DNA of 64,000 bases from an uncultured Candidatus Saccharibacteria bacterium (GCA_964474825.1 CAYYWQ010000001.1:1130184-1194183); one strand, 5' to 3'. Counted from the first letter of the stretch, positions 17,029 through 45,375 are shown. Notes: a model not told the origin generated them from the sequence alone. Numbers and translations are program-made.

Positions 17029-17045
17029 ATTATTAATCATCAAAC

Positions 17046-17546: not shown

Positions 17547-17559
17547 TTTTTTATTTAAA

Positions 17560-31100: not shown

Positions 31101-33866
31101 TCTTTAATGATTGGCTTTAACAGCGACATTGCCACTTTGTTTGTAGGTCCCGGAAATGGCACCAGCACAGTGGGCAATGTTGGTATTGGCACTACCACTC
31201 CGGGTTCTGCTTTAACTGTTGCTGGAGATATTAATTTTACAGGGAATTTGCTTTACAATGGTTCACCAATAACTTTTAATATTTCCAGCGGTCTTACATT
31301 AACCGGTTCGGATTTTGTAGATTCTGTGGACATTAATAGTGAAGTTATTGAGCCAATCCATGTTTCCTTTAGCAGCGACGGAACCCATATGTTTGTTATT
31401 GACGACGATACCGGCAATATATTCCAATACGACTTAGGCTTAGCGTGGGACATAACGACTGCCAGTTACAGCAGTAATTCTTTTGACCCAGGTTCAGAAT
31501 TTGCCTTCGGTGTGTGGTATGCCTCTTGGAAAACAGACGGAACCAAATTGTATGTAGAGGGGAACGCTGATGGCGACACAAAAGTAGTTGAATATTATCT
31601 TTCTTCCCCATGGGATATTTCTACGGCTTCTTCCACCGGAAATTCTATAGATATTTCAACTGACATTAGTAACGGAGGGGATTGGGTTTGGAACAGCGAC
31701 GGCAGTGAGGCTTTTGTAACTGCATGGGAGGGAGGGCTTATACATAGGTATTCACTACTAACTCCTTGGGACCTTACTACAGCAACGTATACAGGCCCGG
31801 TGCTTGAAGTCAGTATCGGCAGCGGTTTTCCAATTGGCATGAGTTTTTTTAACAGCGGCTTAAATATGGGAGTAGTTATGTTTAATCCTGGAAGCGGTAG
31901 TATAGTTTTGTATAGTTATACGCTCGATTCCGCCTACGATGTTTCCAGCGCTTCCCCGGACGGTTCCAGTTTTGACCTTACCGTTTATGGTAATATTACT
32001 GTTCCTTTCTTTAGCCCAGAAGGCGACCAGTTCTATTTTCCTGTTGAGGGTTACTCTGCTGTAAATGGTGGAGACGGAAGTATTATTCAATTTGAACTAG
32101 GCGCTAGCAGTAGTGGATTGCAATGGACAACTTCAGGCAGTGATATTTATTTTTCAAGAGGCAATGTTGGTATAGGCACCCACGAAGCGTCCGCCCTGTT
32201 AGACGTGCAGGGGTCGGGTATGCTGCCGGGGACAGGCACAATTAGCGACGACGGTTATGGTATTATTACCGGCATAGGTACCAGGTTTGAGGAAGAATTA
32301 AGCGAAGGGGATACCATTTTAATCGGCAGTTTTCCTTTTGGTCTTCCTGCTACAATCTATGAAATTTCTGACAATGAACATATGAGAGTCCAGCACGACT
32401 TAAGTGAGACCTATGTAGACACAACTTTTGCTTATCAAAAACCCCTTGTAGTTATGGGAGAGCCAAGCGGTCCGGAAACTATTTTTAGCGCCAGCGGTTA
32501 TACGGCCAGCCTTTCTTTGGGTTACCAAAATACAGTTAGCGGTTATTTTGGTACCGCAATTGGAACGGGAAATACGGTTATGTCTGCTGTTGGGCCCGAC
32601 GGCCTTATGGGAACGGCGGCCTTAGCTCTGGGCAGTGCAAATACTGTAAGGGGTCAGGGGAGTATTGCCATAGGAAGCTATTTAACAGCCGGCGCCGACG
32701 GGGCAATAGTTATAGGTAGTGGGGATTTTGAAGACGAAGGTTCTCTGACAAATAACATAGAAAACTCATTAATGGTTGGCTTTAACAGCGATGTACCAAC
32801 ATTGTTTGTTGGCGCCGGTTCCGGCTTAGGAACTTTTGGTAAGGTTGGTATTGGCACCACCACTCCTGACTTTTTAATTACTTTAAGCGGGGGGGCGTAC
32901 AGTGATGGTTCTTCCTGGTCCAATGCTTCGGACAAAAACTTAAAAGAAAATTTTGCCACTGTCACCCCGGCAGACATTTTGCAAAAAATTGTAAGTCTGC
33001 CTATTAGCCAGTGGAATTATAAAACGGATACAGCCACAACTACCCACATGGGCCCAACGGCCCAGGATTTTTACGCTGCTTTTGGCCTAGGTGGTAAAGG
33101 AGGCGCCAAATCTATTTCTACCATTGATGAGCCGGCAATTGCTTTGCTTGGCATCCAAGCACTAAACCAAAAAATTATTGACTTGCAAGGCGCGCTTGTA
33201 AATAACGCCAGCTCTACAATTGCTTTAACTGTTACCCAAGCCGTTGTGTACGAAAAAACTTTAACAGTTTTGGGACAGGTTTACTTTAGCGGAGACAATG
33301 TCGGACAGGCGCAAATTTTGGCCGGTGAAAATTCCGTGCGAATAAATTTCAGCCAGGCTTATTTGTATCAGCCGATTATTACTATTTCACCAATAGACTT
33401 TGACGGCAAATGGAAATTAAAAAACGTAGATTCCCAAGGATTCACAATTAAGCTGACTGAAAAGCAAAACTTAGACGTCACTTTTAATTGGCACTCTTTT
33501 GCATCTGAGCAGGCTAAGCTTACTGTTAGCAGCGGCACAACTTCGCCTATTACTTTGGTTGTCGTTAGCGGGGAAGTTTTGGGAGAAGCTATCTCCACTC
33601 CAAATACAGGCCCTGTAATCAGCAACAGCCCTCAGCAACCAGCTGAAGCTCCTTCGCCAACTCCGGAAGTTTTGGGGGAGTTTACAACATCCCCTGAGGC
33701 TGTTGTTGATCAACCTGCTTTCCCGTCCCCGGACCCTACGCCGGTAGTTGACGCACCAGCAGATGTGCCGGATTCGCCCAGCCCTAAAGCCCCGGACGAA
33801 GCCCCAACAGTTACGGCTCCTGAACCACCGCCAGCGTCCGCTGCGCCAAGCGAGCCGACTCCTTAA
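25185..33866 (+). CDS. Giant (2893 aa) membrane-anchored surface protein with a phage-tail-fibre-like intramolecular-chaperone (S74-type) domain; putative adhesin
   Basis: Basic N-terminus then TM 'AGALLLLLSFGVYGA'. Collagen-like 'GQKGEPGEPGRAGG' (about 25791-25838). About 20 Gly-rich 'GSGY..GD..T..GG.GG…V' repeats (about 26290-28560). Three modules marked by 'VGIGTTTP' and 'ISDDGDGNITGTGT.F..EL..GD' with YadA/Hep_Hag-like heptads and 'SLMIGFNSD.[AP]TLFVG'. 'WDIT[TS]AS' beta-propeller-like blades (about 31310-32100). 'SDKNLKENF…ILQKIVSLPISQWNYKTD…GPTAQDFYAAFG…IDEPAIALLGIQALNQKIIDLQ' chaperone domain (about 32928-33190). PT-rich tail. A start at the downstream ATG (25284) is possible. Confidence 0.85.
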   Translation: MKIKLEKNKIPRTASHFKKRKVLAGKAKNSADTMEQKIKQIFKVPGEVSKKKIAKRKIITKDILPVIDVESPEFAKMVEIFPASRLKDAVIQGSKILLKPIKVPTFAKAGALLLLLSFGVYGATLSKNYLEQGLLKQLASKQQAAKPVAQNKINPKIKDGAIAKLSRAVPRVLGESTTSQSNSNLPAQIRNILDQYIKEGKITGQKGEPGEPGRAGGSVVGSAPIIYYPPNPSQNFTGGTYLGVTNLSSQNHTVTNNLTVSGNTTIAGALNVSNFSINGITVAGSAQWAADGNNISYSRGNVSVGTASSSGQLTVLDSAAGSYYGSELVNNGNFSGSTEGWTLGDSWGYSTNGVGFVAPVFSGAVTRFSATESAGSGYSVGDVLTLLPGTSDPAGTGGTITVTAVATNGQIESMRGMEAIGRDYNVNQIVDVVGGSGSGAQLLITNMDGEGGVEDFVIQNPGSGYSSGCDTYEVEGTSGHDFRPILCAGSSGGVVSFTLRSGGSGYLEEEHNTSGGHGSGFVANIREVSALGTIDLIPGFDDGHYGTGYHVGDVLTVLPGIGDNEASGGTLTVTEVSNGEIFASSIQNDGIGYQVGDVLTIPGGTGGEYTVSGIDEAGDGHIESIAGINGADQMGSGYERGDILNVAAGTGGQITIDAVLDGQVFFAFPETVANAGSGYAADDIITVNGGDGPVDLIIVEVANDSLGLWEPNTADGNNGVTASGTGYSVGDIVNVDGGSGGQLYVQVVDENGGVQSYSVYENGSGYTLGYNAYATSYGGSGTGFVANVGVLPEGGVLFAESNSSHNGTGYTSGNYSVTGGSGSGFSPMVLAGDISFGFFTEANIHNPGSGYVPGDIITISGGSGAKIIIAGTNSSGGVTDWNLYKPGTGYTAGYATHSTTGGSGTGFSMDLGFPDFGGIVDSELTEAGSGYAYGVHLALGGHGSGYMPLLNTESELGELQYNDYQPVNGGSGYQVGDLVDVSGGTGGKVFVTSVSPSGAVRTIYIARNGTGYASDWAYRSTTGGSGTGLLINAFARNYHNNAITAGSITSAGSGYTSGTNLTLSGGSGSGATINITATGLGGAISEVDVTTGGSNYIAGNHAVSGGHGAGAVPFLAVESAAGGNLVQDLSIESGRRYRVKFTLSGEEEGCVSVFLGGALVSGDSFCGDTIAEVIVEAVNSNGLIFSPSSDFIGNISHVSVTQLKPGATAVSIVNSNSGKVLGISTGISGDNIFFGQESGGFNTDGLGNATLGYQTLYNNAEGSNNLALGYQAGFSNANGSNNIFIGNQAGYSETGSNKLYISNSSSSPLIYGDLTAGLLGINTINPNATLDVLGNPAQTGTGTISDDGDGNITGTGTAFTTELHRGDIVRDSNGEEAIVIYIESDTVMQVSKNLNGDTDQTFTYKHPVLNVTNYGADFPALSVSARGGLSSLNSYSYAGGVSSIAWGDDNLASGDYAAAFGSTNAAGGNFSFTAGLGNIVEGDASAAFGWGNSVFGPNSLALGKFNSVHGNTSMVFGENMQVDGSNSVGINLNYYEYPNLTRDNTMAIMGGNVGIGTTTPDVALSVQGDINLTGNIYKNGSLFGGGDSAWSTTLGSDLYFDAGNVGIGTSNPAANLHVYGEGSGEFTGGYESVLAIESADANPWALSIRRQDIGASSDISLYNNGDETTGDWRFAVGDGADSYYTPVDINKYGLTIGEQGLVGGNALAISPDVGGGMLYGTISAPVPFAWSLGYTSDVTVTSTPVITWNGLGKVGIGTTTPAALFDIRGSDGSIGSGLIADDGDGNITGTDTAFLAELQVGDSIEFYGANAPGIITEIIDDTHMIVSHVHTDPFIDSGFNYQSPLLSVSNAYEGLLNVYGLTNSASLGVGSLVSGGYSYALGAYNTVTSPYTEGPGGVAIGGGNTISSVLASAIGVNNTVTGDSSNAYGLYNTVSGQDAFAIGRYLNATSTGGFVLGSGYSYDHLLTNTIDSSLMIGFNSDIATLFVGPGNGTSTVGNVGIGTTTPGSALTVAGDINFTGNLLYNGSPITFNISSGLTLTGSDFVDSVDINSEVIEPIHVSFSSDGTHMFVIDDDTGNIFQYDLGLAWDITTASYSSNSFDPGSEFAFGVWYASWKTDGTKLYVEGNADGDTKVVEYYLSSPWDISTASSTGNSIDISTDISNGGDWVWNSDGSEAFVTAWEGGLIHRYSLLTPWDLTTATYTGPVLEVSIGSGFPIGMSFFNSGLNMGVVMFNPGSGSIVLYSYTLDSAYDVSSASPDGSSFDLTVYGNITVPFFSPEGDQFYFPVEGYSAVNGGDGSIIQFELGASSSGLQWTTSGSDIYFSRGNVGIGTHEASALLDVQGSGMLPGTGTISDDGYGIITGIGTRFEEELSEGDTILIGSFPFGLPATIYEISDNEHMRVQHDLSETYVDTTFAYQKPLVVMGEPSGPETIFSASGYTASLSLGYQNTVSGYFGTAIGTGNTVMSAVGPDGLMGTAALALGSANTVRGQGSIAIGSYLTAGADGAIVIGSGDFEDEGSLTNNIENSLMVGFNSDVPTLFVGAGSGLGTFGKVGIGTTTPDFLITLSGGAYSDGSSWSNASDKNLKENFATVTPADILQKIVSLPISQWNYKTDTATTTHMGPTAQDFYAAFGLGGKGGAKSISTIDEPAIALLGIQALNQKIIDLQGALVNNASSTIALTVTQAVVYEKTLTVLGQVYFSGDNVGQAQILAGENSVRINFSQAYLYQPIITISPIDFDGKWKLKNVDSQGFTIKLTEKQNLDVTFNWHSFASEQAKLTVSSGTTSPITLVVVSGEVLGEAISTPNTGPVISNSPQQPAEAPSPTPEVLGEFTTSPEAVVDQPAFPSPDPTPVVDAPADVPDSPSPKAPDEAPTVTAPEPPPASAAPSEPTP

Positions 33867-33962
33867 AAACCTTTCCAAACAAAATGGAAAGGTTTTTAAA
33901 TTTGACTTAGGAAATTGAATAAATGATAATTACAAATATAGCAGTACGCGGGTATAAAAATT

Positions 33963-34673
33963 TTGAAAATAATGAACGAAGTTAGCCAAAACCTAAAATT
34001 AAGCGTGGTCCTGCCTTGCCGGGACGAAGAAGCGGCTGTGGGGGAGTGCATTTTAAAAATAAAACAGGTGCTGGAGCAGAATAATATAGATGGGGAAATA
34101 ATAGTATCAGATTCCTCGGCCGACAGTTCAGCCAAAATAGCTCAAAATCTTGGTGCGGTTTTAATTCAGCACGGACGGGAAGGTTATGGTACTGCCTGCC
34201 TGGAAGGGTTTAAAGCGGCAAAAGGAAAATATATATTTTTGGCAGACGCTGACGGAAGTTATGATTTTGCGGAAATACCTAATTTTTTGGCACACCTGGA
34301 ATTGGGTAATGATTTTGTAATCGGCAACAGGTTTAAAGGAAAAATTGCCCCCGGGGCAATGCCTTTGCTTCACCGCTTTGTGGGAAACCCACTGTTTCCG
34401 TTTATGTTTAGAATATTTTTCCGCGCAAAAATTCAGGACGTGCACTGCGGAATGAGGGCCGTGGCTAAAGAGTCGCTCGCTCCGCTGGCGCTTAATTCCA
34501 CTGGTATGGAATTTGCGTCGGAAATGCTAATTAAGGCCGTGCAAAATAAACTTAAAATACACGAGCTATCTATAAATTATTACAAAAGGAAAGGCGTTTC
34601 AAAACTGCGTCCTTTTGCGGATGGCTTTAGGCACCTTAGGTTAATAGTGCTCGCAGGAGCTTTTAAAAAATGA
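33963..34673 (+). CDS. Glycosyltransferase family 2 (Dpm1/ArnC-like polyprenol-phosphate sugar transferase type)
   Basis: 'LSVVLPCRDEE', 'IIVSDSSAD', 'YIFLADADGSYD' (DxD) motifs. 236 aa. Confidence 0.75.
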   Translation: MKIMNEVSQNLKLSVVLPCRDEEAAVGECILKIKQVLEQNNIDGEIIVSDSSADSSAKIAQNLGAVLIQHGREGYGTACLEGFKAAKGKYIFLADADGSYDFAEIPNFLAHLELGNDFVIGNRFKGKIAPGAMPLLHRFVGNPLFPFMFRIFFRAKIQDVHCGMRAVAKESLAPLALNSTGMEFASEMLIKAVQNKLKIHELSINYYKRKGVSKLRPFADGFRHLRLIVLAGAFKK

Positions 34674-35770
34674 AGATAGCGGTTTTCCATAATTTTATGG
34701 ACAACATAGGCGGCGCGGAAATTGTGGCGCTGGCTTTAACTAAAGGCCTTTCCGCGGACCTTTATACCACCAACATAGACCGCGACAAAATAGAAAAAAT
34801 GGGTTACGGAAACATTTTGCCCAATATATATTCCATTGGCACAGTTCCAAAAAACGCTCCGTTTAGGCAGCAGCTGACTTTTTGGAAATTTAGTCAGCTT
34901 AATTTAAAAAAGAAATACGACTTCTACATTATTGCCGGGGACTGGGCCATGTCCGGCTGTGTTAATAACAAGCCAAATTTATGGTATGCCCACTCTCCCT
35001 TAAATGAGCTTTGGGCCTTTAAAGACTATGTAAGAAACCAGGTTATAGAAGGTTGGAAAAAACCTTTTTTTGATGTATGGGTTTGGTTTAACCGAAGGCT
35101 TAATAAAAAATATGTAAATCATGCCCAAATAATTATTTGCAATTCCAAGAATACGCAACAAAGAGTAAAAAATATTTATAACCGTAAAGCTGGGGTTTTG
35201 AATCCTCCGGTAGATACGGCAAAATATTTTAGCAATCCCCACAAAGGTTATTGGCTTTCAGTTAATCGGCTAACAAAGGCCAAAAGAATAGAACTGCAAA
35301 TGCATGCCTTTGCCCAAATACCGGAAGAGAATTTAATTATAGTGGGCAGTTACGAAAAAGGCTCTAAGCCTTTTGAAAAATACAAAAAATTTATTGGAGA
35401 AATAAAACCTCCAAATGTTAAAATTATAAACTGGGCAACAGACGAGGAATTAAAAGAGCTGTATGCCAACTGCATTGGCCTAATAACTACTTCCATAGAC
35501 GAGGATTTTGGCATGGCGCCGGTTGAAGCCATGGCCGCGGGCAAGCCGGTAATAGCGCCAAACGAAGGCGGCTACAAAGAAACACTGGTCGATGATGTTA
35601 CTGGAAAACTTATTTCAGACATCAGCTTTGAGAAATTGATTAAATCAATCCGGGAAGTCGGTAAAAATCCGGAAAGTTACAAGCAGGCATGTTTACTGCA
35701 AGCCGCAAAGTTTGACACGCAAATTTTTATAAATAAAATTCAGCAGCTATTAGAAAAGCCCTATGCCTAA
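34670..35770 (+). CDS. Glycosyltransferase (GT-B fold, GT4-like)
   Basis: C-terminal Glycos_transf_1-like region: 'EDFGMAPVEAMAAGKPVIAPNEGGYKETL' (EX7E-type). ATGA start/stop overlap with the upstream gene. Confidence 0.7.
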   Translation: MKIAVFHNFMDNIGGAEIVALALTKGLSADLYTTNIDRDKIEKMGYGNILPNIYSIGTVPKNAPFRQQLTFWKFSQLNLKKKYDFYIIAGDWAMSGCVNNKPNLWYAHSPLNELWAFKDYVRNQVIEGWKKPFFDVWVWFNRRLNKKYVNHAQIIICNSKNTQQRVKNIYNRKAGVLNPPVDTAKYFSNPHKGYWLSVNRLTKAKRIELQMHAFAQIPEENLIIVGSYEKGSKPFEKYKKFIGEIKPPNVKIINWATDEELKELYANCIGLITTSIDEDFGMAPVEAMAAGKPVIAPNEGGYKETLVDDVTGKLISDISFEKLIKSIREVGKNPESYKQACLLQAAKFDTQIFINKIQQLLEKPYA

Positions 35771-36605
35771 AGCATTGTTCATTACCGGAAATAAGCGCTC
35801 CGGCACTTCCCAGCTCGTTAGGCTCCTAAATTTACACCCGGAAATATTTGTTTCGCATGAGTCAGACGCTGTGCTCATAATTTCGCGTTTTTTAAAGGGA
35901 GAACCTTTCTTAAGCCATGCCGCAGATTCTTCTGTTGGAATGGAATATACTTTAAAAATTTGTGGCCAACTTTTGAGCAAACAAAAAAGCGCTGCAGAAA
36001 ACTTTTTTGCAATTCAAAAAAAGCTTATGGAAACGGGCAGCCCGTGGCTTCCATCAGAACCTAAAAAAGACCCGCAATGGGTGGGGGACAAAAAGCCTTT
36101 TCAGTATTCGGATCCCTCTATAACAGATTTTATCCGTTCCAGTTTTCCGCAGGCTGTTTTTATTCATTTAGTCAGGCATCCTTTTGCCGTAGCCCAAAGC
36201 GCGCAAAAATTTAACAAAACCGTTAATGGGGATTTTTGGAGAGGTTTAAGTTTAGAGGAAATGGTGGAAGAGTGGGCTAAAAATGAAAATAATGTTTTAG
36301 AGCTAAAAAAATCCGGTTGGGCCAAAGTGATGGACGTGCGCTATGAAGATTTATGTAAGGAAACAGACAAAGAACTTACGCGAATTTTTAATTTTTTGGG
36401 GCTCAAAGTAAACGCAAATATTTTAAAAACAGCAGCCAAAACCACTCGTTACACACTAAAAAAAATACCAATAATTCCTTGCAGTCAGAACACGCTTTCT
36501 ATTATGGGCCAGTATGGATACACACCGGGGCAGGCAGAAAAGGGAAGGGCGCAAATTTTACTTTCCAATTTATATTGGAAAGTGCACAAAAAAATATATG
36601 CATAA
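35763..36605 (+). CDS. Sulfotransferase-family protein (PAPS-dependent)
   Basis: N-terminal 5'-PSB-like P-loop 'FITGNKRSGTSQLVRLLNLHPEIFVSHE'. Mid-region 'FIHLVRHPFAVAQS' (3'-PB-like). About 280 aa, typical of bacterial sulfotransferases. Confidence 0.65.
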   Translation: MPKALFITGNKRSGTSQLVRLLNLHPEIFVSHESDAVLIISRFLKGEPFLSHAADSSVGMEYTLKICGQLLSKQKSAAENFFAIQKKLMETGSPWLPSEPKKDPQWVGDKKPFQYSDPSITDFIRSSFPQAVFIHLVRHPFAVAQSAQKFNKTVNGDFWRGLSLEEMVEEWAKNENNVLELKKSGWAKVMDVRYEDLCKETDKELTRIFNFLGLKVNANILKTAAKTTRYTLKKIPIIPCSQNTLSIMGQYGYTPGQAEKGRAQILLSNLYWKVHKKIYA

Positions 36606-37179
36606 AAAAGTTTTTCAGGAGTTTGAAAAAATCTGTTCTAAAAGAAGTTTAAGAGGTTCGGTTCTGGAGGTTGGCGCCAAACCGGATTTTTCCAGCCTTT
36701 TGAATATGGAAGCGCTAAAGGCCATGGACGAAAAAATAGGCATTAACCTGGAAGGGGCATCTGAGTATAAAGATTTTAAAATACTTAAAGGCAATGCCAA
36801 TAATATGGATTGTTTTGCCAGCAATAGTTTTGATTTAGTTTTATGCAACGCGGTTTTTGAACACGACAAATTTTTTTGGAAGACACTTTCGGAAATAAAA
36901 AGGGTTGCCAAACCTGGCGCGCTTATTGTTATTGGCGCTCCGGGTTTTGGTATTACTGCCGCCGAAGGCCGCTTACGCGCCATCTTAAATCACATTCCCT
37001 TCTTGCCTAGTTTTTTTACCAGTTCTACTTTAACACTTCTGGAACACAACTTCCCGGGCGATTATTACCGTTTTAACAAACAGGCTTTTGAGCAAGTTTT
37101 TTTTGAAGGAATGAAAGAAGTCAGTATTAAAACTATAATGTCCCCCCCAAGAATAATAGGCGCAGGCATAAAATCATGA
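36598..37179 (+). CDS. Class I SAM-dependent methyltransferase. Start moved to ATG 36598, overlapping the upstream stop, rather than the ORF-track start at 36514
   Basis: Motif I 'VLEVGAKPD', 'DLVLCNAVFEH', 'KPGALIVIGAP' (Methyltransf_11/23-like). Confidence 0.65.
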   Translation: MHKKVFQEFEKICSKRSLRGSVLEVGAKPDFSSLLNMEALKAMDEKIGINLEGASEYKDFKILKGNANNMDCFASNSFDLVLCNAVFEHDKFFWKTLSEIKRVAKPGALIVIGAPGFGITAAEGRLRAILNHIPFLPSFFTSSTLTLLEHNFPGDYYRFNKQAFEQVFFEGMKEVSIKTIMSPPRIIGAGIKS

Positions 37180-38336
37180 AAATATTGCACGTGGTCGGCA
37201 GTTTAGACCCTAAAGACGGAGGCGTGGTCCAGGTTGTTTTGGGCATGACAAAGGCTTTGGTAAAAAATAATATAGATGTTACTTTGTTCGCGCCTGAGCC
37301 GGGAAACGTAGAGGATATAAAAGATTATGGGGGAGTGAAAATAAAATTTTTTAAAAAAGCTTTTTTCTCGGTGTTTTTGGCTGGGCATTCGCTTAGGTCT
37401 GGCTACAGCCCTGCATTAGCAAAAGCTTTGGCAAAAGAGGCTGGTAATTTTGATCTGGTGAATACCCACAGTATTTGGCACTACCCGCACTATGCGGCTT
37501 TTTTGGCATCTTCTGCGGCTAATGTTCCTTTTATGTCCACGGTCCAAGGTGAGTTAACTCCTTGGGCTTTAAAACAGCAAAGCGCTTGGGGCTTACATAC
37601 TCAGAAAAAAATATTAGCTAAAGCCTCAGCCATTCAGGCTGTTTCCAAACAGGAAGCCCAAAATATTAAAAACTTTACCAGTAACCCTAATATTTTTGTT
37701 GTGCCCAACGGCATAACGCCCGAGGACTTTTCGGGGGAGAATGGTAATGATTGGTTATTTACAAAGTATCCGGAGCTAAAAGGCAAAAAGATTGTTTTAT
37801 TTTTAGGCCGCGTTAATGCGGGCAAGGGTTTGGAAGTTTTGGCTCATGCGTTTGCTAAGGTGTCCGCTCGCGAGCCTGACAGCAGGCTCCTTATAGTCGG
37901 ACCGGACGAATGGGGCTACGGCAGGAAAATAAAAGAAATTTTAAAAAGAGAAAATGTTTTAGATAAGACTGTTTTTACAGGTATGCTGGTTGGTAAAGAA
38001 AAACTTTCTGTTTTAAAATCTTCAAGTGTTTTTGTTTTGCTCTCTGAGTCTGAAGCCTTTAGTGTTACAATTTTAGAAGCCCTTTACTGCGGCTTGCCTG
38101 TAATTATTAGTCCGGAATGTAATTTTCCGGAAGTAGAAAGTTTTGGAGCAGGCAAGATTATTGAAAGAGATAGTGAGCAGCTGGCTGTCAGTCTTTTGGA
38201 AATGTTTGCAGATCTTCCACGTCTCGCCCAAATGTCTGAAAATTCCAAGAAACTTTCGAGTTCAGGAGAATATTTTTATGACAACATTGCCAAAAAAATT
38301 ATAGGGATTTACGAAAAAATTAAATTCAATGTTTAA
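37176..38336 (+). CDS. Glycosyltransferase family 4 (GT-B)
   Basis: N-terminal 'MKILHVVGSLDPKDGGV' (GT4 N-domain). C-terminal 'SESEAFSVTILEALYCGLPVIISPE' EX7E motif. Confidence 0.8.
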   Translation: MKILHVVGSLDPKDGGVVQVVLGMTKALVKNNIDVTLFAPEPGNVEDIKDYGGVKIKFFKKAFFSVFLAGHSLRSGYSPALAKALAKEAGNFDLVNTHSIWHYPHYAAFLASSAANVPFMSTVQGELTPWALKQQSAWGLHTQKKILAKASAIQAVSKQEAQNIKNFTSNPNIFVVPNGITPEDFSGENGNDWLFTKYPELKGKKIVLFLGRVNAGKGLEVLAHAFAKVSAREPDSRLLIVGPDEWGYGRKIKEILKRENVLDKTVFTGMLVGKEKLSVLKSSSVFVLLSESEAFSVTILEALYCGLPVIISPECNFPEVESFGAGKIIERDSEQLAVSLLEMFADLPRLAQMSENSKKLSSSGEYFYDNIAKKIIGIYEKIKFNV

Positions 38337-39441
38337 GCGGGTAAAAAAAATTATAAAAATTAACGCTCAGAGGGCAGTACTTTGTGTTATTCATAGGCGT
38401 TTGCCGTTCCGCTCTTTTTTTGGTGTAGGCTTGGTTAATAAGAAATGGGCAAGAGAACTAAATCAAAGACTCCTGGATAGCAATAAAGTTAAAGTAGGGT
38501 TTGGTCCTGTAATTAGCGGGGAAGACGATTTAGGCGTTAGAAAATGGCGCATAGACCCAATTGTTAATTACATTAACCAAAGCAGCAAAAAATATTGTGC
38601 CGGAATTTTTTTAAATGTCCAACAAGCGGAAAAATTCGACATTCTTGTTATTGTAAAAGACTTATCTGTTTTAAGTTTTACGGATATTACACAATTAAAG
38701 AAAAATAATAAAAAAATTATTTACGATGTTATTGACCAGCCGTATGGGGAGAATGCAGCTCATTACCCGCAAATAAAAGAAATCTTTAAAGTCGTAGACG
38801 CCATAATTGTTTCCAGTCCGCTTCAGGAGCAGGATTTATTAGGCCTTAATAAAATTGTAACTTTAATAGAGCATCCGGTCATAAACACGCTGGCAAAAGA
38901 TTACAGCAGGGGAGGCAATGGGCCAATAAAAATTATTTGGCAGGGCTACAGCGAACACCATAAGCGCATGGAATTTTTGCATCCTATGATAGAAAGAATT
39001 GCAAAAGAGTTAGGGAAAAAAATTACCCTAACTTACCATACTAATTTATTGCCAAAGCGAAATGGCTTTGTAAATTTTAAAACCTGGACTGTCAATAACT
39101 GGGAAAAGGCCTTGGTTAAGGCGGATATTGCCGTGGAAGTTAAAACTTTAGACGACCCGTTGCTGCAGCGTAAACCTTCCACTAAAGCGGTTTTGTATGG
39201 AGCGGTTGCGCTACCGGTTGTTTTAACCCCGTCAGCCGCAGACAAACTAGTCGTTACCCATGGGCAGACCGGCTATTTTGCTTACAGCCGGGAAGACTGG
39301 TATATATATTTAAAAAAATTGGCGGAAAATGTAAGTCTTCGTCAAAGCATGGGTTTGTTGGCTAAACAGCGCGCTCTGGAAAATTTTAATATTGCAAAAA
39401 TTGGGGAAAAATATATTAGCCTGTTGGATAAAATGGTTTAG
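38329..39441 (+). CDS. Putative glycosyltransferase / polysaccharide-biosynthesis protein (GT-B-like C-terminal half)
   Basis: C-terminal 'KPSTKAVLYGAVALPVVLTPSAADKLVVTHGQTGYF' resembles the GT1-family nucleotide-sugar-binding half. The N-terminal half is unassigned. Confidence 0.35.
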   Translation: MFKRVKKIIKINAQRAVLCVIHRRLPFRSFFGVGLVNKKWARELNQRLLDSNKVKVGFGPVISGEDDLGVRKWRIDPIVNYINQSSKKYCAGIFLNVQQAEKFDILVIVKDLSVLSFTDITQLKKNNKKIIYDVIDQPYGENAAHYPQIKEIFKVVDAIIVSSPLQEQDLLGLNKIVTLIEHPVINTLAKDYSRGGNGPIKIIWQGYSEHHKRMEFLHPMIERIAKELGKKITLTYHTNLLPKRNGFVNFKTWTVNNWEKALVKADIAVEVKTLDDPLLQRKPSTKAVLYGAVALPVVLTPSAADKLVVTHGQTGYFAYSREDWYIYLKKLAENVSLRQSMGLLAKQRALENFNIAKIGEKYISLLDKMV

Positions 39442-40181
39442 CTGTTTATATAACTTTCAACAATTTCTTGCGAATTGCCTTGTTCAACAATCTCGCCCTT
39501 CTCCATCCACATAACTTTACTGCAATATTTTTTTACAGCAGACAAATCATGGGTAACTAAAACAACGCTAAGTCCTTGGCTTACTGCTTCCTGAATTTTT
39601 TTAGCGCTTTTGTTTTTAAAGTTTTCGTCGCCAATTTCAAAAACTTCGTCCAGCAAAAGTATTTCCGGCCGCGAGAAAATGGCCAGGGAAAAAGCCAGAC
39701 GCTGCTTCATGCCTTCGGAGAATTGGTAGATTTTTGTTTCCATGTATTCGGCAAGGCCTGAAAATTCCGCAATGGAATTTAGTTTGTCTTTTATTTCCTG
39801 CCTGCCTAAGCCAAACAGAGAACAGCACAGGAAAATGTTGTCTTTCATGCTTAGCCTGTCCTGCAGGGCCGCGCCTAAATTTATTAAAGAAATTATTTTT
39901 CCGTGCGTCAAAACCTGTCCCATATCCGGCTGGTAAATACCCGCAACTATTCTCAGCAGGGTGCTTTTTCCGCTGCCGTTTTTACCCAAAATACCTAAAA
40001 TTTCTCCCTCTTTAAGTTCAAAAGAAATATTATTTAACGCCCAAATGTCTTTTTTTGGCTCCCTTCCCGAAAATATAGACAAGAAATACCACAAAACACT
40101 CTGCTTTTTTTTAAAGCCAATCCTGAATTTTTTTGAAATATTTTTTACACTCACTCTTTGCATTTTAAATCCTTTCCGCAA
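39438..40181 (-). CDS. ABC transporter ATP-binding protein, polysaccharide/teichoic-acid export type (Wzt/TagH/KpsT-like), no C-terminal carbohydrate-binding domain
   Basis: Walker A 'GKNGSGKST', signature 'FSEGMKQRLAFS', Walker B 'ILLLDEV'. 247 aa. Confidence 0.85.
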   Translation of the reverse strand: MRKGFKMQRVSVKNISKKFRIGFKKKQSVLWYFLSIFSGREPKKDIWALNNISFELKEGEILGILGKNGSGKSTLLRIVAGIYQPDMGQVLTHGKIISLINLGAALQDRLSMKDNIFLCCSLFGLGRQEIKDKLNSIAEFSGLAEYMETKIYQFSEGMKQRLAFSLAIFSRPEILLLDEVFEIGDENFKNKSAKKIQEAVSQGLSVVLVTHDLSAVKKYCSKVMWMEKGEIVEQGNSQEIVESYINS

Positions 40182-40959
40182 ATTTCCGTTTTAAGCAGCT
40201 AAAAATAAAAATGCCCACCAGCAAAAAAAGCAGGGTGTAAAGTATTACCCCTAAAATTATATACAGTTCGGGTGTTCTGCCATAAAGCAAAAGGTCCCGG
40301 GAAGCGGTTAAGAAGTAGTATAGGGGATTAAATAAATTAAAAATAAACAGCCGGTTCTGCCCGCCTATGGTGTAAAAAATCGGTGTGGCAAACCATAACA
40401 GTCTCGCAATAAAAGCCCAAATATTTTCTAAGTCCGTAAAGTAAACAGTCAGGGAAGAAAGTATTAGGGAGGCTCCAAAAGTAAACAGGAAAAAAAATAA
40501 AAAAATCACCACATAAAAAAACAACCCTTTTAAAGGCAAGCCAGAAAAAATCATAAAGCCTGCAAAAACAATAATTTCAAAAAAATGGGAAAAGGAAGCT
40601 TTGAAAGCAGAGGAGCTTACAATGGCCTCTAAAGGAAATCTAATAGATTTAATTACTCCCCGGTGTATGTGTATTGCTTTGGTGGACTCTGTAGTTACGT
40701 ACTGGAAGAAGTTAAACATTATTAAACCCAAAAGCAGGTAAAGAGGGTAGTGCTTTATACCTTCTCCAAGCCTTGCTGAAAAAACCGCCAAAAGAAGGCC
40801 AAAGGTCAGTAGAGGAGCGAGTAAATACCAAAATACTCCCAAAAAACTGCCTTCATTCCGCTCTTTAAATCCGGCCTTGGCCAGTTCAAAGCTTAGGCGG
40901 AGAAAACCTTTCATTTTGTGGGCAGATCCCATATCCGCGGGTTTTAATAAACTCTCCAT
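40165..40959 (-). CDS. ABC-2 type transporter permease (Wzm/TagG-like)
   Basis: Six predicted TM helices. About 264 aa. Overlaps the downstream ATPase gene (operon). Confidence 0.7.
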   Translation of the reverse strand: MESLLKPADMGSAHKMKGFLRLSFELAKAGFKERNEGSFLGVFWYLLAPLLTFGLLLAVFSARLGEGIKHYPLYLLLGLIMFNFFQYVTTESTKAIHIHRGVIKSIRFPLEAIVSSSAFKASFSHFFEIIVFAGFMIFSGLPLKGLFFYVVIFLFFFLFTFGASLILSSLTVYFTDLENIWAFIARLLWFATPIFYTIGGQNRLFIFNLFNPLYYFLTASRDLLLYGRTPELYIILGVILYTLLFLLVGIFIFSCLKRKFAERI

Positions 40960-41007
40960 GATACAATAAAGTATATTGTATTTAACACCTAAAGTGAAAT
41001 TACATAA

Positions 41008-42816
41008 ATGCTCCAGGTTATAGTTGGTGCTATTTTACTTCTTTTCCCATTTTTACTTTTAATAAAATATAAAGACAAAAGCTTGGCTTTTGTTTATATT
41101 TTTTCTTTGTGGCTGGCATTCCATTTGTTTGTTGCTCTGGTAACTCAGCTGCTGCATATTTTTACTTACCCTGTTTTGCTTGGCGCTAATTTAGTTTTAG
41201 CCGGGGCGGTTTTAGGGGTAATGCGGTCTTCTTGGGTCAAGCCAAAGCTTTTTCCCGCTGAGTTCCTAAAAAATAATTGGGCGCCGCTTTTTGCCCTGGC
41301 CCTGGCTTTTATTTGTCTTTATTCTGTCCACTATAATTATTCTGGAAAATACAGTGTGGTTGGTACATCTGAATATAAGGAAGTTAAAAATATGAAGTAT
41401 GAGTATCCTTATTTTGCAGACGAGTGGTATTCCGCAGCCTTTATAAAAGATTCAATAAGCTCCCGTTCATTGCCAGTTAGAAATCCGCTGACAAAACTTA
41501 AGTTGCCTTTTGTAAATTTTGAAATTGCTTTCCATTCATTTTTGTCCGGTTTGTTTTTGCTTTTAGGTGTAGAGCCGCTTACGACTTACCCGGTCATAAG
41601 TTTAATTTTTAATTTGGTTATTTGCGGTTTAATTTATCTATTCCTCAGAAGGAATAACATTGGGAAAAAGGCCGCGGCAATTTGTGGTCTTCTTGCTCTG
41701 TATATTACAAACGGCAGCAACCTCCCCGGACTGTGGACACTTATTCCTTTCACCTTAGGAATTATTTCAATTTTACTTGGGTTTATTTTTTTAAGTTCCG
41801 GCAAAAAAATGGAGGCTTTGCTTACAGCGGTCTTGGTCCTTTTATTTTACCCGCCGTTTTTCCCTTTTTATACTTTAATGATTATTTTATTTTTGTTGTT
41901 TTCTAAAAATTTGAGCACCAAAGAAAAAATTAATGACGCTGCCTATTATTTTTCCATCTGCCTTGTTATCGGCTTTCTTGTCTCACTTGCTCACTTTGCG
42001 GCGGGCAAGGGAACCACAGGCGCCCTCAACGAAATATTTTCCAAAATATTTTACCAAACTCTAACAGTGCCTTATAATCCTAATTTTCCTATATTATCAG
42101 TCGTGCCCTACTTGGCTTTGCTTTTACTGCCCTTTGGAATTTACTCCGCGACAAAAAAGCATATTTGGCTGGCCGCCAGTGTTTTTTTAGGGCTGGCTTT
42201 TTGGATATTTTATTCCCTTTCTACCTTCCGGGTATTTATAGAATATGAACGCGTAGTAATTTTAACTTCAATATTAATAGTTATAGTAGCGGGATTTGGG
42301 CTGGAGTATTTGGCCGGACTGCTTAAAAGAGTTAGATTTTTTAGGGGAAATAGCTACGTTGAATATTTGCTTTCGGCAGTACTGATTTGTTTTTTATTTT
42401 TTACTTTTAATTATACCAACAGAGATTCCTGGAAGAATTTTACTACAGACGCGGCAGCAGACGGCGAGTTTTTAATTCCTTTGGCCGTGGCTAATAATTA
42501 TTTGGTTCTAGATGACTTAGAAGTTTTTAAAAATATTCATAATAAAATTTTCTTAAGCTTGCCTTGGAAGGGAACAGTCTTGGGAGTTGCTACTAACAAT
42601 TACCCGGCCAGCATAAAAACCGGCACCATTGGGATTTATCCATATTTAGGGAAGCAGTTTATGGCCGTAAGTTGCCGTGAAAAAAGCCTGCTGGCCAAAG
42701 CCTACAGGCTGGATTATGTGTACCTACCAAAATTTACCTGCCCGGAATTTGAATTTGTAAGTAGTAGCGGGGAAGGCTTTTATTTGTACCAATTTAAAAA
42801 GCCCCAGGCCTCTTAA
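41008..42816 (+). CDS. Polytopic membrane protein (about 13-14 TM + about 140-aa C-terminal extracytoplasmic domain); GT-C-like glycosyltransferase/oligosaccharyltransferase candidate
   Basis: Topology only: many TM helices, a roughly 70-aa loop after TM4, a soluble C-terminal domain. No sequence motif confidently recognised. Confidence 0.4.
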   Translation: MLQVIVGAILLLFPFLLLIKYKDKSLAFVYIFSLWLAFHLFVALVTQLLHIFTYPVLLGANLVLAGAVLGVMRSSWVKPKLFPAEFLKNNWAPLFALALAFICLYSVHYNYSGKYSVVGTSEYKEVKNMKYEYPYFADEWYSAAFIKDSISSRSLPVRNPLTKLKLPFVNFEIAFHSFLSGLFLLLGVEPLTTYPVISLIFNLVICGLIYLFLRRNNIGKKAAAICGLLALYITNGSNLPGLWTLIPFTLGIISILLGFIFLSSGKKMEALLTAVLVLLFYPPFFPFYTLMIILFLLFSKNLSTKEKINDAAYYFSICLVIGFLVSLAHFAAGKGTTGALNEIFSKIFYQTLTVPYNPNFPILSVVPYLALLLLPFGIYSATKKHIWLAASVFLGLAFWIFYSLSTFRVFIEYERVVILTSILIVIVAGFGLEYLAGLLKRVRFFRGNSYVEYLLSAVLICFLFFTFNYTNRDSWKNFTTDAAADGEFLIPLAVANNYLVLDDLEVFKNIHNKIFLSLPWKGTVLGVATNNYPASIKTGTIGIYPYLGKQFMAVSCREKSLLAKAYRLDYVYLPKFTCPEFEFVSSSGEGFYLYQFKKPQAS

Positions 42817-43592
42817 CTTTTCGCCAAAGTTTTTATATATTTTAAAACAATTTCCGCCTGCTCCTTAGGATTTTGCTTGTCGGAATTTAAAGTAACGTGC
42901 GGGTTTTTCGGCGCTTCATAAGGTTTATTTTGGTCTTTAGGGAGTTTGCGCGCAATATATATCCACACCGGTTTTATTAGCCGGTCAATTTTTTGGCGGA
43001 CATTCTTAAATGGGGCAATTACAGAAACAATAACAGGGGACTGTTTGGAAAGAGCCAGCGCGAGTCTGGCAACACGCAGGTTGTGTTCAGTCCTGTCTTG
43101 TTTGGAAAACCCGGCATCTAAAGAAATAGACTGGCGCATCTCATCTCCATCTAAAACCACGCCGCCTATTTTTTCTTTTAGCAGTGAAGCCAGTGTTGTC
43201 TTCCCCGCGCCGCTTTGTCCGGTTATCCAGTAAATAGGGAAGCGCTTTAAATTTTTCTCCCTGGTTTTTGTTCCTGAAATATTTTCTACTTCCGAAGAGA
43301 GTTCTATTTTTCTAATGGCATAACCTACGTCCCTGCCGTAGCAAATTTCGTCTATGTCCGGTATGGTAATAATTTTTACCAGCTCCCCGTATTTTTTTAA
43401 GCTCCGTGAAATAATATTCCAGCGTTCAGCGGTACTGTAAGGGTTGGTGGGGCTAATTTCCGTGTCCCTAATGGCAATGACAACGGGTTTGCCTTTTTTT
43501 AGTACAGTCTCTATTAAGGTAAGGTGGCCTTTATGAAAAGGTTGCCACCTGCCCACGAACAAGCTGGCCGGTTGGATTTGGGGTTTCTTCAT
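42813..43592 (-). CDS. Fusion of an HxGH nucleotidyltransferase-like domain with adenylyl-sulfate (APS) kinase
   Basis: N-terminal 'FVGRWQPFHKGHLTLIE' (cytidylyltransferase/NMNAT-type HxGH). C-terminal 'ITGQSGAGKTTLASLLKEKIGGVVLDGDEMR' (CysC Walker A plus LDGD). The linker region is present. Confidence 0.65.
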   Translation of the reverse strand: MKKPQIQPASLFVGRWQPFHKGHLTLIETVLKKGKPVVIAIRDTEISPTNPYSTAERWNIISRSLKKYGELVKIITIPDIDEICYGRDVGYAIRKIELSSEVENISGTKTREKNLKRFPIYWITGQSGAGKTTLASLLKEKIGGVVLDGDEMRQSISLDAGFSKQDRTEHNLRVARLALALSKQSPVIVSVIAPFKNVRQKIDRLIKPVWIYIARKLPKDQNKPYEAPKNPHVTLNSDKQNPKEQAEIVLKYIKTLAKS

Positions 43593-43719: not shown

Positions 43720-44364
43720 ATGGATATGAACAACAAGTTTCAAAGAGTTTTTATGAAGTGGCTGCCTTTGGCGATTGTCACAATAGTTCTAGCAGGAACA
43801 GTTTATGTGGCGATACAACAGAATTACAGGATGTCTGCCAATGACCCGCAAATTCAGGTGGCGGAAGACGTAGCAGAGGCCATTACCAGTGGTACAGCGG
43901 CTCCGGACAGCATTGTCCCGGCTGCTCCCACCGCGGACATGACCAAAAGCCTTTCCACTTTTTTAATTATTTACAGTGCCAGCGGCACCCCGGTTGGGGG
44001 CTCTGTTGCGCTCGACGGAAAAATCCCAACTCCGCCCGCCGGAGTGTTTGACAACGTAAAAAAACATGGACAGGAACGCTTAACCTGGCAGCCCAAGGCC
44101 GGAGTTAGAATGGCTACGGTTATTGTAAGTTTTGCGGGTCCGGAATCCGGTTATGTGTTAGTGGGTCGTTCTTTGGAAGAAGTGGAAGCCAGAATAATGC
44201 AGCTTGGTTTGTTGGTTGGCCTGGGCACTTTAGTTGCTTTAATTTTAAGTTTTTTGGCTATGTTTTTTATGGCAGGTGCCGGACATGGCCACGCGCATGA
44301 GCATCACCATGACCACGAGGTACCGGGCTTGTCCGGGCATAACCATAATGACTCCGCAGTTTAA
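43720..44364 (+). CDS. Membrane-anchored hypothetical protein with His-rich C-terminus
   Basis: TM 'WLPLAIVTIVLAGTVYVAI'. A second TM lies near the C-terminus. Tail 'GAGHGHAHEHHHDHEVPGLSGHNHND' (metal-binding-like). Confidence 0.45.
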   Translation: MDMNNKFQRVFMKWLPLAIVTIVLAGTVYVAIQQNYRMSANDPQIQVAEDVAEAITSGTAAPDSIVPAAPTADMTKSLSTFLIIYSASGTPVGGSVALDGKIPTPPAGVFDNVKKHGQERLTWQPKAGVRMATVIVSFAGPESGYVLVGRSLEEVEARIMQLGLLVGLGTLVALILSFLAMFFMAGAGHGHAHEHHHDHEVPGLSGHNHNDSAV

Positions 44365-44525: not shown

Positions 44526-44888
44526 ATGGCCAAGAAGTTATTTGTCGGCGGAATTCCGTGGGCAACCACATCCGACGATTTGCAGCAGTTGTTCAGTGCC
44601 CATGGCACAGTTAGCTCTGCGACAGTTATTACGGACAAAATGTCCGGACGCAGCAGAGGTTTTGGATTCGTTGAATTTGAAAACGACGCCGAAGCCGATG
44701 CGGCAACAGCAGCTTTAAACAACAGCCAGTACGGCGGCAGGACTTTGGTAGTCAAAGAAGCCCGTCCTCTGGAAGACCGACCAAAAAGAAGCTTTGGCGG
44801 CGGTGATCGCGGCGGTTACGGTGGTGGACGCGGCGGCAGCGGCGGTTACGGTGGTGGCCATGGCGGCGGTCACAGAGACCAATACTAA
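44526..44888 (+). CDS. Glycine-rich RNA-binding protein (single RRM domain)
   Basis: RNP2 'KLFVGGI', RNP1 'RGFGFVEF'. C-terminal GGYGGG repeats. Confidence 0.8.
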   Translation: MAKKLFVGGIPWATTSDDLQQLFSAHGTVSSATVITDKMSGRSRGFGFVEFENDAEADAATAALNNSQYGGRTLVVKEARPLEDRPKRSFGGGDRGGYGGGRGGSGGYGGGHGGGHRDQY

Positions 44889-44958
44889 TTTTGAGTTTCG
44901 AAAAGCTCTTCCTTCTGGGAGAGCTTTTTTGTTTTAGCAGATATGTTATAATTTCTTT

Positions 44959-45375
44959 ATGCACAGAAGACATAAGCACGACATAATAGTTATATTGGCC
45001 ATGCTTGGTTTTGCGGACACGATTTATTTAACTGTCTACAAGGCTTTGGGAATTGCGGTTCCTTGCGGCCTAACAGGAGGTTGTGAGGCAGTGCTTTCCA
45101 GTAAGTACTCTTCCTTCCTGGGGGTGACTTTGGCAGAGTGGGGGATTGTGTTTTTTGGGGGAATCATTATTGCCGCGCTTTTGGCCAACCATTACGACAA
45201 ATGGCGCAAACTTTTAACAGTGGGTTTGGCTTTGGGCAGCGTTGGTGCCCTGGTTTTTTTGTCCCTGCAATTTTTTGTCATTAAACAAATTTGTGAGTAT
45301 TGCCTGCTAAGTGATTTATTGGTTATTGCCTTACTGATTTTTGATATTAATATAGAACACCGCAGGGAAGTTTAG
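44959..45375 (+). CDS. Vitamin K epoxide reductase (VKOR)-family membrane thiol oxidoreductase
   Basis: Loop cysteine pair 'CGLTGGC', a conserved downstream Ser/Tyr-rich segment, and active-site 'CEYC' at the start of the last TM. Four TM helices. Confidence 0.6.
   Translation: MHRRHKHDIIVILAMLGFADTIYLTVYKALGIAVPCGLTGGCEAVLSSKYSSFLGVTLAEWGIVFFGGIIIAALLANHYDKWRKLLTVGLALGSVGALVFLSLQFFVIKQICEYCLLSDLLVIALLIFDINIEHRREV

Follow-up and report, generated by a model that had tools for sequence, protein, structure and literature searches.

In Haloferax volcanii, N-glycans are made by the AglJ/G/I/E/P/R/B pathway, with methylation and sulfation at the lipid-linked stage. In Halobacterium salinarum, a tetrasaccharide of which sugars three and four are sulfated is built on dolichyl phosphate (Dol-P), flipped and transferred by AglB, and the sulfotransferases acting on this N-glycan, Agl30 and Agl31, are sulfatase-fold proteins (PMC11980604). 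Here we analyze a 64-kb stretch of DNA from an uncultured Candidatus Saccharibacteria bacterium (GCA_964474825.1 CAYYWQ010000001.1:1130184-1194183; this whole stretch is hereafter the window). Its gene cluster at 33963-43592 varies these known lipid-linked glycosylation systems and contains two unannotated enzyme families, ORF9 (41008-42816, + strand) and ORF10 (42813-43592, - strand). We judge the chances to be about even that the cluster encodes, in a bacterium of the candidate phyla radiation (CPR), a self-contained pathway for a lipid-linked oligosaccharide, of the kind represented by Agl in archaea.

The proposed pathway shares with the haloarchaeal Agl systems (AglJ/G/I/E/P/R/B in Hfx. 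volcanii; Agl25-31 and AglB in Hbt. salinarum) a start by a family 2 glycosyltransferase (GT2) on polyprenyl (dolichyl) monophosphate, extension by soluble glycosyltransferases (to four or five sugars in the archaea), clustered genes, methylation and sulfation at the lipid stage, flipping, and en bloc transfer by an oligosaccharyltransferase (OST) of the GT-C class. It differs from them in its CPR host; in ORF9, which has neither sequence similarity to AglB nor the WWDYG motif; in its flippase, a Wzm/Wzt transporter of the ABC-2 type (ABC, ATP-binding cassette) and not an AglR/Agl29-type protein; and in its sulfotransferase, which has the Sulfotransfer_3 fold dependent on 3′-phosphoadenosine 5′-phosphosulfate (PAPS) instead of the sulfatase fold of Agl30/Agl31, and comes with a dedicated PAPS-supply gene. 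The Pgl system of Campylobacter jejuni is bacterial, like the cluster; there an ABC transporter (PglK) moves the lipid-linked oligosaccharide and a GT-C OST, PglB, transfers it to protein. Pgl is, however, initiated by a phosphoglycosyltransferase on undecaprenyl diphosphate, whereas the initiating enzyme of the cluster resembles a monophosphate hexosyltransferase. Similarly, PglK is a fused type-IV ABC exporter, unlike Wzm/Wzt, and PglB has WWDYG and reads D/E-X-N-X-S/T, whereas ORF9 carries neither motif signature.

Predicted structure of ORF9

The first-pass annotation of the window had described ORF9 as a GT-C-like polytopic membrane protein, and its predicted structure bore this out. The AlphaFold model (pLDDT, predicted local distance difference test, 90.9; pTM, predicted template modelling score, 0.92) contains a GT-C transmembrane fold and a C-terminal mixed alpha/beta globular domain, as in GT66 enzymes. 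When the model was searched with Foldseek, 15 of the first 18 places were taken, with full-length alignments, by PglB (top), yeast Stt3, human STT3A/B and AglB. OSTs were found at E-values of 3e-7 as compared with 0.17 for the protein O-mannosyltransferase PMT, and the C-terminal domain matched the OST-specific globular domain of AglB. On the strength of this model, ORF9 is more than merely 'GT-C-like': it is an orphan GT-C membrane glycosyltransferase with an OST-like fold and an AglB-like C-terminal domain, though not a canonical member of the OST family.

Sequence searches with ORF9 gave no match in Pfam at E≤0.01, the STT3 model included, and a profile built from 38 members retrieved nothing at E≤10 from all PDB chains. 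The family was assembled first from 43 word-sharing relatives and then by a profile search of 1.84 billion representatives; it comprises 608 clusters at 50% identity, 298 of them at E≤1e-30. The best 150 matches of this search were full-length family members only, with no bridge to a named family, and a Pfam search at E≤1 with 72 diverse relatives returned only five matches, all weak and to DUF6541.

Invariant in the family are YPYF(S/A)DEW in the first large loop, R415, and a PWKG motif and a Cys pair in the C-terminal domain. In the loop, D138 and W140 are invariant and E139 nearly so; these acidic residues may correspond to the catalytic ones of PglB (D56/D154/E319). The conserved Cys pair implies that the C-terminal domain is extracytoplasmic. 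Beyond ORF10, the window carries at 44526-45375 (+) genes for an RNA recognition motif (RRM) RNA-binding protein with a Gly-rich tail (PF00076, 6.5e-22) and then for a homologue of vitamin K epoxide reductase (VKOR; PF07884, 2.3e-23); VKOR points to disulfide formation outside the cytoplasm, in agreement with this Cys pair.

A module common to CPR bacteria and DPANN archaea

We compared 80 metagenomic loci anchored on ORF9 relatives (loci used for comparison carry L-numbers) and counted neighbours in the 19 that have at least 5 kb on both sides. Within 10 kb of ORF9, a GT2 gene was present in 17/19, a GT4 gene in 16/19 and Wzm/Wzt in 15/19; every one of the 19 had a GT2 or the transporter. The commonest divergent neighbour of ORF9 was a GT2 (11 loci). 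The closest relative (L039, 51% identity) keeps the layout GT2-GT4-...-Wzt/Wzm|ORF9 without sulfation genes. The module was also seen in two archaeal loci. In L034, which carries Hjc and Pus10, the order GT2|ORF9 is accompanied by a methyltransferase, a GT4, an ORF10 homologue, a Stf0-type sulfotransferase and Wzm/Wzt; in L036, a Pacearchaeota contig with archaeal ribosomal proteins, GT2|ORF9 is found with two GT4, a GT8, a radical S-adenosylmethionine (SAM) enzyme and Wzm/Wzt. A core module of GT2, one or more GT4, Wzm/Wzt and ORF9 is common to CPR bacteria and DPANN archaea, and its presence in both domains suggests transfer between bacteria and archaea.

A sulfotransferase or an ORF10 homologue was found in about 8 of the 80 loci, plus L034 and L038. 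Two ORF9 modules have an ORF10 homologue but lack any recognisable Sulfotransfer domain; here the fusion gene adjoins a gene for a 345-aa orphan (L059, 345-1382, -) or for a WcbI-like protein (L082, 9887-10849, -). Either protein is a candidate for a sulfotransferase that has escaped recognition or for another enzyme that uses PAPS.

Organization and gene content of the cluster

Every domain call in 33963-43592 was upheld by Pfam and NCBIfam profiles. The first-pass annotation had assigned the region to glycan assembly and had listed among its parts a Wzm/Wzt exporter, a GT-C-like membrane protein, a sulfotransferase of the PAPS type, a methyltransferase and a gene for PAPS supply; this picture held, together with its ORF coordinates. 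Its count of nine genes and its single operon did not: there are ten genes, in four transcription units, namely a run of six genes (+), Wzm-Wzt (-), ORF9 (+) and ORF10 (-). Of the tight ATGA start/stop overlaps described, two are present in the six-gene run (34670-34673 and 37176-37179); its other three junctions are 8-nt overlaps, and translational coupling is limited to these six + strand genes. Wzm-Wzt is convergent to the run, ORF9 is divergent from Wzm with 48 bp between them, and ORF10 is convergent on ORF9 with a 4-nt overlap. In a second assembly of this cluster (L001), genes called independently start at 33972 (GT2), 36598 (methyltransferase, 193 aa) and 40163 (Wzt).

The first gene of the run (33963-34673, likely start ATG 33972) encodes a Dpm1/AglJ-like GT2 (Glycos_transf_2, PF00535, 2.8e-21). 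Its top NCBIfam match is AglJ (TIGR04182, 1.6e-38) at 132.8 bits, below the curated cutoff of 325, and a Dol-P-hexose transferase model was also matched. The best PDB relative is the Pyrococcus Dol-P-Man synthase (5mlz, 1.2e-13 over residues 7-226), with ArnC also among the nearest. From these matches, we consider the enzyme a candidate polyprenyl-phosphate hexosyltransferase, its lipid acceptor being predicted. Two GT4 enzymes, GT4a (34670-35770, +, in ATGA overlap with the GT2; PF00534, 5.2e-27) and GT4b (37176-38336, +; PF00534, 1.4e-27; PF13439, 3.6e-18; HpsP-like, 9.6e-45), both match Glycos_transf_1/Glyco_transf_4. The 370-aa product of 38329-39441 (+) has no Pfam match of its own; because most of its 70 homologues (34-55% identity) carry GT-B C-terminal domains (PF00534/PF13524/PF13692), we class it as a divergent, GT4-like GT-B. 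The four glycosyltransferases proposed at first, a Dpm1-like GT2, two GT4 and one further GT-B-like protein, were all recovered by profiles in this way, the last through its homologues. Three single-domain GT-B enzymes and one GT2 are in keeping with a glycan the size of a tetrasaccharide. Among the window ORFs of at least 150 aa that were scanned against Pfam, there was no initiating phosphoglycosyltransferase, Wzy, WaaL or LCP, and neither the cluster nor the window contains a polymerising multidomain glycosyltransferase. The former absence would be expected, since an AglJ-like initiator and an OST-like enzyme would make these proteins unnecessary.

Two further enzymes are predicted to modify the glycan. 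Sulfotransferase profiles had been named as the check on the PAPS-type sulfotransferase at 35763-36605 (+), and the protein matches Sulfotransfer_3 (3.5e-24; 86.7 bits, cutoff 27) and Sulfotransfer_1 (1.2e-9; 38.4 bits, cutoff 22), in both cases above the cutoff. Its nearest solved relatives are CurM/OLS sulfotransferases, with which it was aligned, and TPST. It has an N-terminal GNKRSGTS loop (residues 9-16), an HLVRHP...S motif and no transmembrane segment, as a soluble enzyme. The methyltransferase gene (36598-37179, +; longest ORF from 36514) overlaps it by 8 nt and encodes a single class I SAM-dependent domain (Methyltransf_11, 1.6e-10) in a protein of 193-221 aa (193 aa by the gene call).

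The exporter consists of a Wzt/TagH-like ABC ATPase (39438-40181, -; gene call from 40163, 241 aa; ABC_tran, 1.7e-26) and the ABC-2 permease Wzm (40165-40959, -; ABC2_membrane, 2.1e-10; Wzm/RfbD, 1.8e-12). The best NCBIfam matches of the ATPase are TagH (3.8e-50) and Wzt/RfbE (2.9e-47), and in the same database the permease resembles that of a galactan exporter. Whether Wzt lacks a carbohydrate-binding module (CBM) was checked, as had been advised: at 241-247 aa, with ABC_tran spanning residues 49-180, it is a nucleotide-binding domain only and a CBM would not fit.

A proposed lipid-linked pathway and an ordinary polysaccharide as its alternative

A simple model of the cluster would run as follows. 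The AglJ/Dpm1-like GT2 would load the first hexose onto polyprenyl phosphate at the cytoplasmic face, and GT4a, GT4b and the divergent GT-B would lengthen the chain to a short oligosaccharide. While still cytoplasmic, this glycan would be modified by the soluble methyltransferase and the soluble PAPS-dependent sulfotransferase. ORF10 would supply the PAPS, through an N-terminal, trimmed adenylyltransferase of the nicotinamide-mononucleotide adenylyltransferase (NMNAT) type that would make adenosine 5′-phosphosulfate (APS) from ATP and sulfate, and a C-terminal APS kinase. The CBM-less Wzm/Wzt would then carry the lipid-linked glycan across the membrane, and ORF9 would transfer it en bloc to an extracytoplasmic acceptor, most likely one or more surface proteins. 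Our data show the domain identities, the fold of ORF9, the coupling of the genes, the conserved module of GT2, GT4, Wzm/Wzt and ORF9, and the repeated occurrence of the ORF10 family near sulfation genes; the order of the steps, the lipid carrier, the en bloc transfer, the acceptor and the ATP sulfurylase step are predictions of this model. Protein glycosylation had been suggested for the locus before, and the idea gains support, the ORF9 model matching OSTs best.

The alternative that survives best, possible although in our opinion unlikely, is an ordinary ABC-transporter-dependent polysaccharide (O-antigen, capsule or teichoic-acid-like) primed by an enzyme encoded elsewhere, with Wzm/Wzt exporting the polymer of the GT4/GT-B enzymes, the GT2 and ORF9 adding only single side-branch sugars from polyprenyl-P-hexose outside the membrane, and sulfate and methyl groups as ordinary decorations. 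In the ABC-dependent O-antigen systems (E. coli O9a with WbdD/Wzt-CBM, Klebsiella O2a; also TagGH for teichoic acids), a Wzm/Wzt ABC-2 transporter likewise lies beside cytoplasmic GT4 enzymes, and the TagH, Wzt/RfbE and galactan-exporter matches of our transporter would suit such a polymer. Moreover, DPMS/ArnC-related GT2 enzymes are paired with polytopic GT-C proteins, often divergently, in GtrB-GtrC, ArnC-ArnT, CsbB-YfhO and Ppm1-Pmt. The kinship of our GT2 with Dol-P-Man synthase and ArnC, the divergent GT2 found beside ORF9 in 11 loci, a classic arrangement of donor synthase and GT-C, and an ORF9 without WWDYG would all agree with a side-branch function. Unlike the GT-C partners of those pairs, ORF9 has en bloc OSTs, ranked far above PMT, as its best structural matches, and it possesses the OST-specific domain of AglB. 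Unlike the O-antigen systems, the cluster has no CBM on Wzt, no WbdD-like kinase/methyltransferase ruler, and no WecA/TagO initiator, WaaL or LCP; no initiating phosphoglycosyltransferase, polymerising multidomain glycosyltransferase, ligase or LCP was seen in the rest of the window either. The module is also present in DPANN archaea, which have no lipopolysaccharide or teichoic acids.

Several points nevertheless weigh against the lipid-linked pathway ending on protein. The pattern W[WYF][DE][YWF]G or WWD was found in 0 of 72 members of the ORF9 family. With no WWDYG, no STT3 profile match and no PDB sequence match, canonical N-X-S/T recognition is not expected of ORF9, and its acceptor could be something other than protein. 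We know of no Wzm/Wzt transporter that flips the donors of N-glycosylation, and the carrier used by bacterial PglB is a diphosphate. Finally, the sulfation module is an accessory add-on: among the 19 well-flanked ORF9 loci, none has a detectable sulfotransferase and one has ORF10.

The suggested chain-length cap and the giant upstream ORF

Much less probable is the reading first offered for the locus, of a Wzm/Wzt pathway in which a terminal sulfate or methyl cap sets chain length and which is dedicated to the giant surface protein encoded just upstream. The sulfotransferase and methyltransferase are indeed located inside the glycosyltransferase operon, and the methyltransferase recalls the WbdD cap. 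The cap is unsupported by our results, since a Wzt without CBM cannot read it, and according to Pfam and NCBIfam, the operon contains no kinase domain and no WbdD-like coiled-coil terminator.

The protein encoded by the giant ORF (25185-33866, +, 2893 aa) is rich in Gly (15%) and has collagen-like GxxGxPG stretches. A Peptidase_S74 intramolecular-chaperone domain occupies residues 2582-2633, and a Pro/Ala/Ser-rich tail follows it. Judged by these sequence features, the protein resembles self-cleaving fibres of the tail-fibre or endosialidase type more than it does an S-layer protein, and the 'S-layer-like' label was dropped. The notion that the system is dedicated to this protein, with conserved adjacency, likewise found no support. 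Directly 3′ of the stop codon of the giant ORF lies a hairpin terminator-like element with a 15-bp stem (33863-33899, +), and a promoter-like site (TTGACT-17-GATAAT, 33902-33930, +; 10/12 consensus matches, by consensus match only) precedes the six-gene operon, so that both elements separate the giant ORF from the GT2. ORFs of at least 1200 aa occur in 5 of the 80 ORF9 loci, i.e. 0.53 per 100 kb compared with 0.37 per 100 kb in control (ORF10-anchored) loci, which is background. In L039, the closest relative, the cluster is laid out in the same way but no giant ORF lies beside it. The giant ORF has 43 N-X-S/T sequons, which together with its immediate upstream position would favour it as an acceptor, but this density (1.5 per 100 aa) is close to the about 1.1 estimated from composition.

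In a minority of loci, large ORFs (1290 to >3329 aa) adjoin the ORF9 homologue (L055, 6023-9961; L067, 10104-13976; L083, 3713-13699), and in L035 one lies two small ORFs away (13296-18116). These neighbours, which agree with the idea of a dedicated giant protein, might be acceptor proteins. Other secreted proteins are encoded in the window. Just upstream of the giant ORF, 23187-24395 (-) encodes a 402-aa secreted protein with no family match; no other protein of the neighbourhood is as rich in Ser/Thr (27%) or in sequons (3.0 per 100 aa). A 1664-aa secreted protein (51426-56420, +; S+T 18%) with a CBM60 xylan-binding module and a GHL15 putative glycoside hydrolase domain is the nearest match that we found to the S/T-rich surface proteins mentioned in the first-pass annotation. 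Two type IV pilus sets are present, one at 13427-18309 (T2SSE ATPase, T2SSF platform protein and a pilin with an N_methyl motif) and the other at 59245-63747 (PilM, a PilO-like protein and a second PilB-type ATPase with an MshEN domain). The gene content of the window is otherwise CPR/Patescibacteria-like, with RNase J, UvrA, UvrC, purine-salvage genes and three tRNAs in addition to the pilus genes and the RRM and VKOR proteins, and the relatives of the cluster proteins are named Patescibacteria, Daviesbacteria, Woesebacteria and similar.

ORF10, a fusion of nucleotidyltransferase and APS kinase

In PAPS synthases and Sat-CysC fusions (human PAPSS1/2, Aquifex aeolicus 2gks, Thiobacillus 3cr8), an adenylyltransferase-fold domain is joined to an APS kinase, in either order depending on the lineage. 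ORF10 is built in the same way, from an NMNAT-derived nucleotidyltransferase (residues 1-115; CTP_transf_like, 2.9e-7) and an APS kinase (residues 116-259; APS_kinase, 2.3e-19), and shares with those proteins an HxxH-type nucleotidyltransferase motif. It differs from them in an N-terminal domain of about 115 aa, as compared with about 350-400 aa in ATP sulfurylase, which is of archaeal-type NMNAT origin, has no ATP-sulfurylase profile match, has no RNP loop and has its own invariant G-R-x-V-G-Y, and also in a kinase without lid in the CPR versions. The family numbers more than 1,900 homologues across Patescibacteria, at 60-75% identity.

The kinase domain matches TIGR00455 at 8.2e-25 (87.5 bits, below the cutoff of 138.7) and aligns with archaeal APS kinases at 2e-17. 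Its motifs GQSGAGKT, LDGDEMR153, DR167, N171 and SVIAPF are invariant or nearly so among 40 members. For the N-terminal domain, the top profiles are NMNATs (PRK01153, 8e-14; TIGR01527, 1.1e-11), and the GRxQPxHxGH and SGTxxR motifs are kept. Compared with Methanothermococcus NMNATs, the nicotinamide-binding helix (...FNxIWV..., with the stacking Trp) and the C-terminal helical subdomain are deleted throughout the family, GSAQ is replaced by RDTE, and R42 and G86-R87-x-V-G-Y are new invariants. No ATP-sulfurylase or PAPS_reduct profile in Pfam or NCBIfam matched ORF10. Its GRWQPFHKGH and CYGRDVGY segments resemble Sat loops (Q-x-R-N-P-x-H-x-x-H and GRDHAG) but are not those motifs. The top Foldseek matches of the whole model were bifunctional ATP sulfurylase-APS kinases, with both domains collinear.

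The small domain was also found in other arrangements: C-terminal to a full APS kinase, i.e. in swapped order, in a Planctomycetota metagenome-assembled genome (MAG; L022, 10070-11071); as a separate gene adjacent to the APS kinase gene cysC in a deltaproteobacterium (L021, 1473-2403); as a stand-alone 120-aa protein in Kaiserbacteria (L018, 10001-10363); and directly followed by sulfotransferase reading frames in an Acidobacteriota MAG (L017, 10001-11395), which may be a frameshifted fusion. Fusion in both orders together with gene adjacency is the pattern known for Sat and CysC. We propose that the small domain makes APS, because of these Sat/CysC-like arrangements, the Foldseek matches and the absence of a canonical sulfurylase motif nearby. 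It would thus work like an ATP sulfurylase, although it is not a member of Sat/PF01747 or CysD.

The association of ORF10 with sulfation genes is recurrent. Among 145 neighbours within 5 kb of family members in 18 loci, there were six Sulfotransfer_3, five Sulfotransfer_1 and three Sulfatase matches. A sulfotransferase gene overlaps the start of the fusion gene in L006 and L032, and other loci contain an FGE-sulfatase gene (FGE, formylglycine-generating enzyme), three sulfatase-fold genes and a PAPS reductase, or two sulfatase-fold genes and a TauE permease. ORF10 homologues are located inside ORF9 glycan modules in at least four further loci. The PAPS-supply role first suggested for this gene is borne out at the level of gene association: because the family recurs near sulfotransferases, sulfatases and FGE in many phyla, its link to sulfation is not a chance adjacency. 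A sulfotransferase match in L005 from later profile rounds was discounted, as it was antisense to a longer ORF; the counts rest on Pfam and early rounds. Sulfatase-fold proteins flank the ORF10 homologues of L033 (6478-7983 and 12170-13672) and L022 (8109-9530 and 11144-12559, the L022 match starting from residue 2), and they are possibly sulfotransferases instead of sulfatases, since Agl30/31 of Halobacterium are sulfatase-fold enzymes.

On the other side of the balance, the ATP sulfurylase activity of ORF10 is a suggestion from context and motif logic only. In the CPR versions, about 20 aa of the kinase lid are deleted relative to 7yq0/8a8h (the Omnitrophota and Planctomycetota versions retain the whole lid), and residues 81-110 of the ORF10 model are of low confidence, with 85-90 below a pLDDT of 50. 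A crude six-frame scan of 485 kb, the window plus the loci, found no canonical ATP sulfurylase or CysD motif (RNPxHxxH, GRDHAG, SGGKDS), but as it did not cover whole genomes it cannot prove genome-wide absence of canonical sat/cysDN.

It is scarcely credible that ORF10 is a housekeeping enzyme unrelated to the cluster (a fusion of phosphopantetheine adenylyltransferase with a dephospho-CoA-kinase-like domain, or of NMNAT with a kinase), placed here by chance while the cell obtains PAPS or APS from its host or by another route: its high conservation and wide spread in Patescibacteria, one member named dephospho-CoA kinase by NCBI, the NMNAT profiles and a BLASTP synteny with window genes that is largely absent around ORF10 homologues would allow it, and we rejected it after Pfam had found sulfotransferases and sulfatases among the neighbours (FGE and PAPS-reductase genes recur there too), the more so as the gene is embedded in ORF9 modules, the residues binding the APS phosphosulfate are invariant, the nicotinamide-stacking Trp helix and the C-terminal subdomain of NMNAT are deleted and neither CoaE nor NadR kinase profiles are the best match.

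A gene divergent from ORF10 (43720-44364, +) encodes a 214-aa protein with N- and C-terminal transmembrane segments and a His-rich tail (GHGHAHEHHHDHE...HNH). It has no family match and could be a metal-binding membrane protein.

Implications for CPR and DPANN surfaces

Attachment to host cells is the way of life of CPR bacteria and DPANN archaea, which makes surface chemistry central to their biology. To our knowledge, their glycosylation machinery is essentially uncharacterised, and a literature search on this fusion, on sulfotransferases or on OSTs in CPR/Patescibacteria returned nothing relevant. Taken together, and tentatively, we suggest that the domain of about 115 aa in ORF10 is a third kind of ATP sulfurylase, previously unrecognised, and that ORF9 founds a new, WWDYG-less OST family that glycosylates proteins en bloc in CPR bacteria, taking the glycan from a polyprenyl-monophosphate donor.

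If so, ORF10, at 259 aa, would be the smallest PAPS synthase known, compact enough to be of potential use in enzymatic sulfation, and a textbook reaction would have gained a new enzyme family. ORF10 would represent a sulfate-activation route for surface sulfation in CPR bacteria, some DPANN archaea, Omnitrophota and Planctomycetota, and the family offers a testable answer to how organisms of minimal metabolism synthesize PAPS. The cassette suggests that lipid-linked glycosylation in the archaeal style exists in bacteria, with a transferase invisible to sequence annotation; if our reading of ORF9 is true, the cassette would have been exchanged between CPR bacteria and DPANN archaea. With the added sulfate, the surface glycans of these cells would be strongly anionic and resemble glycosaminoglycans.

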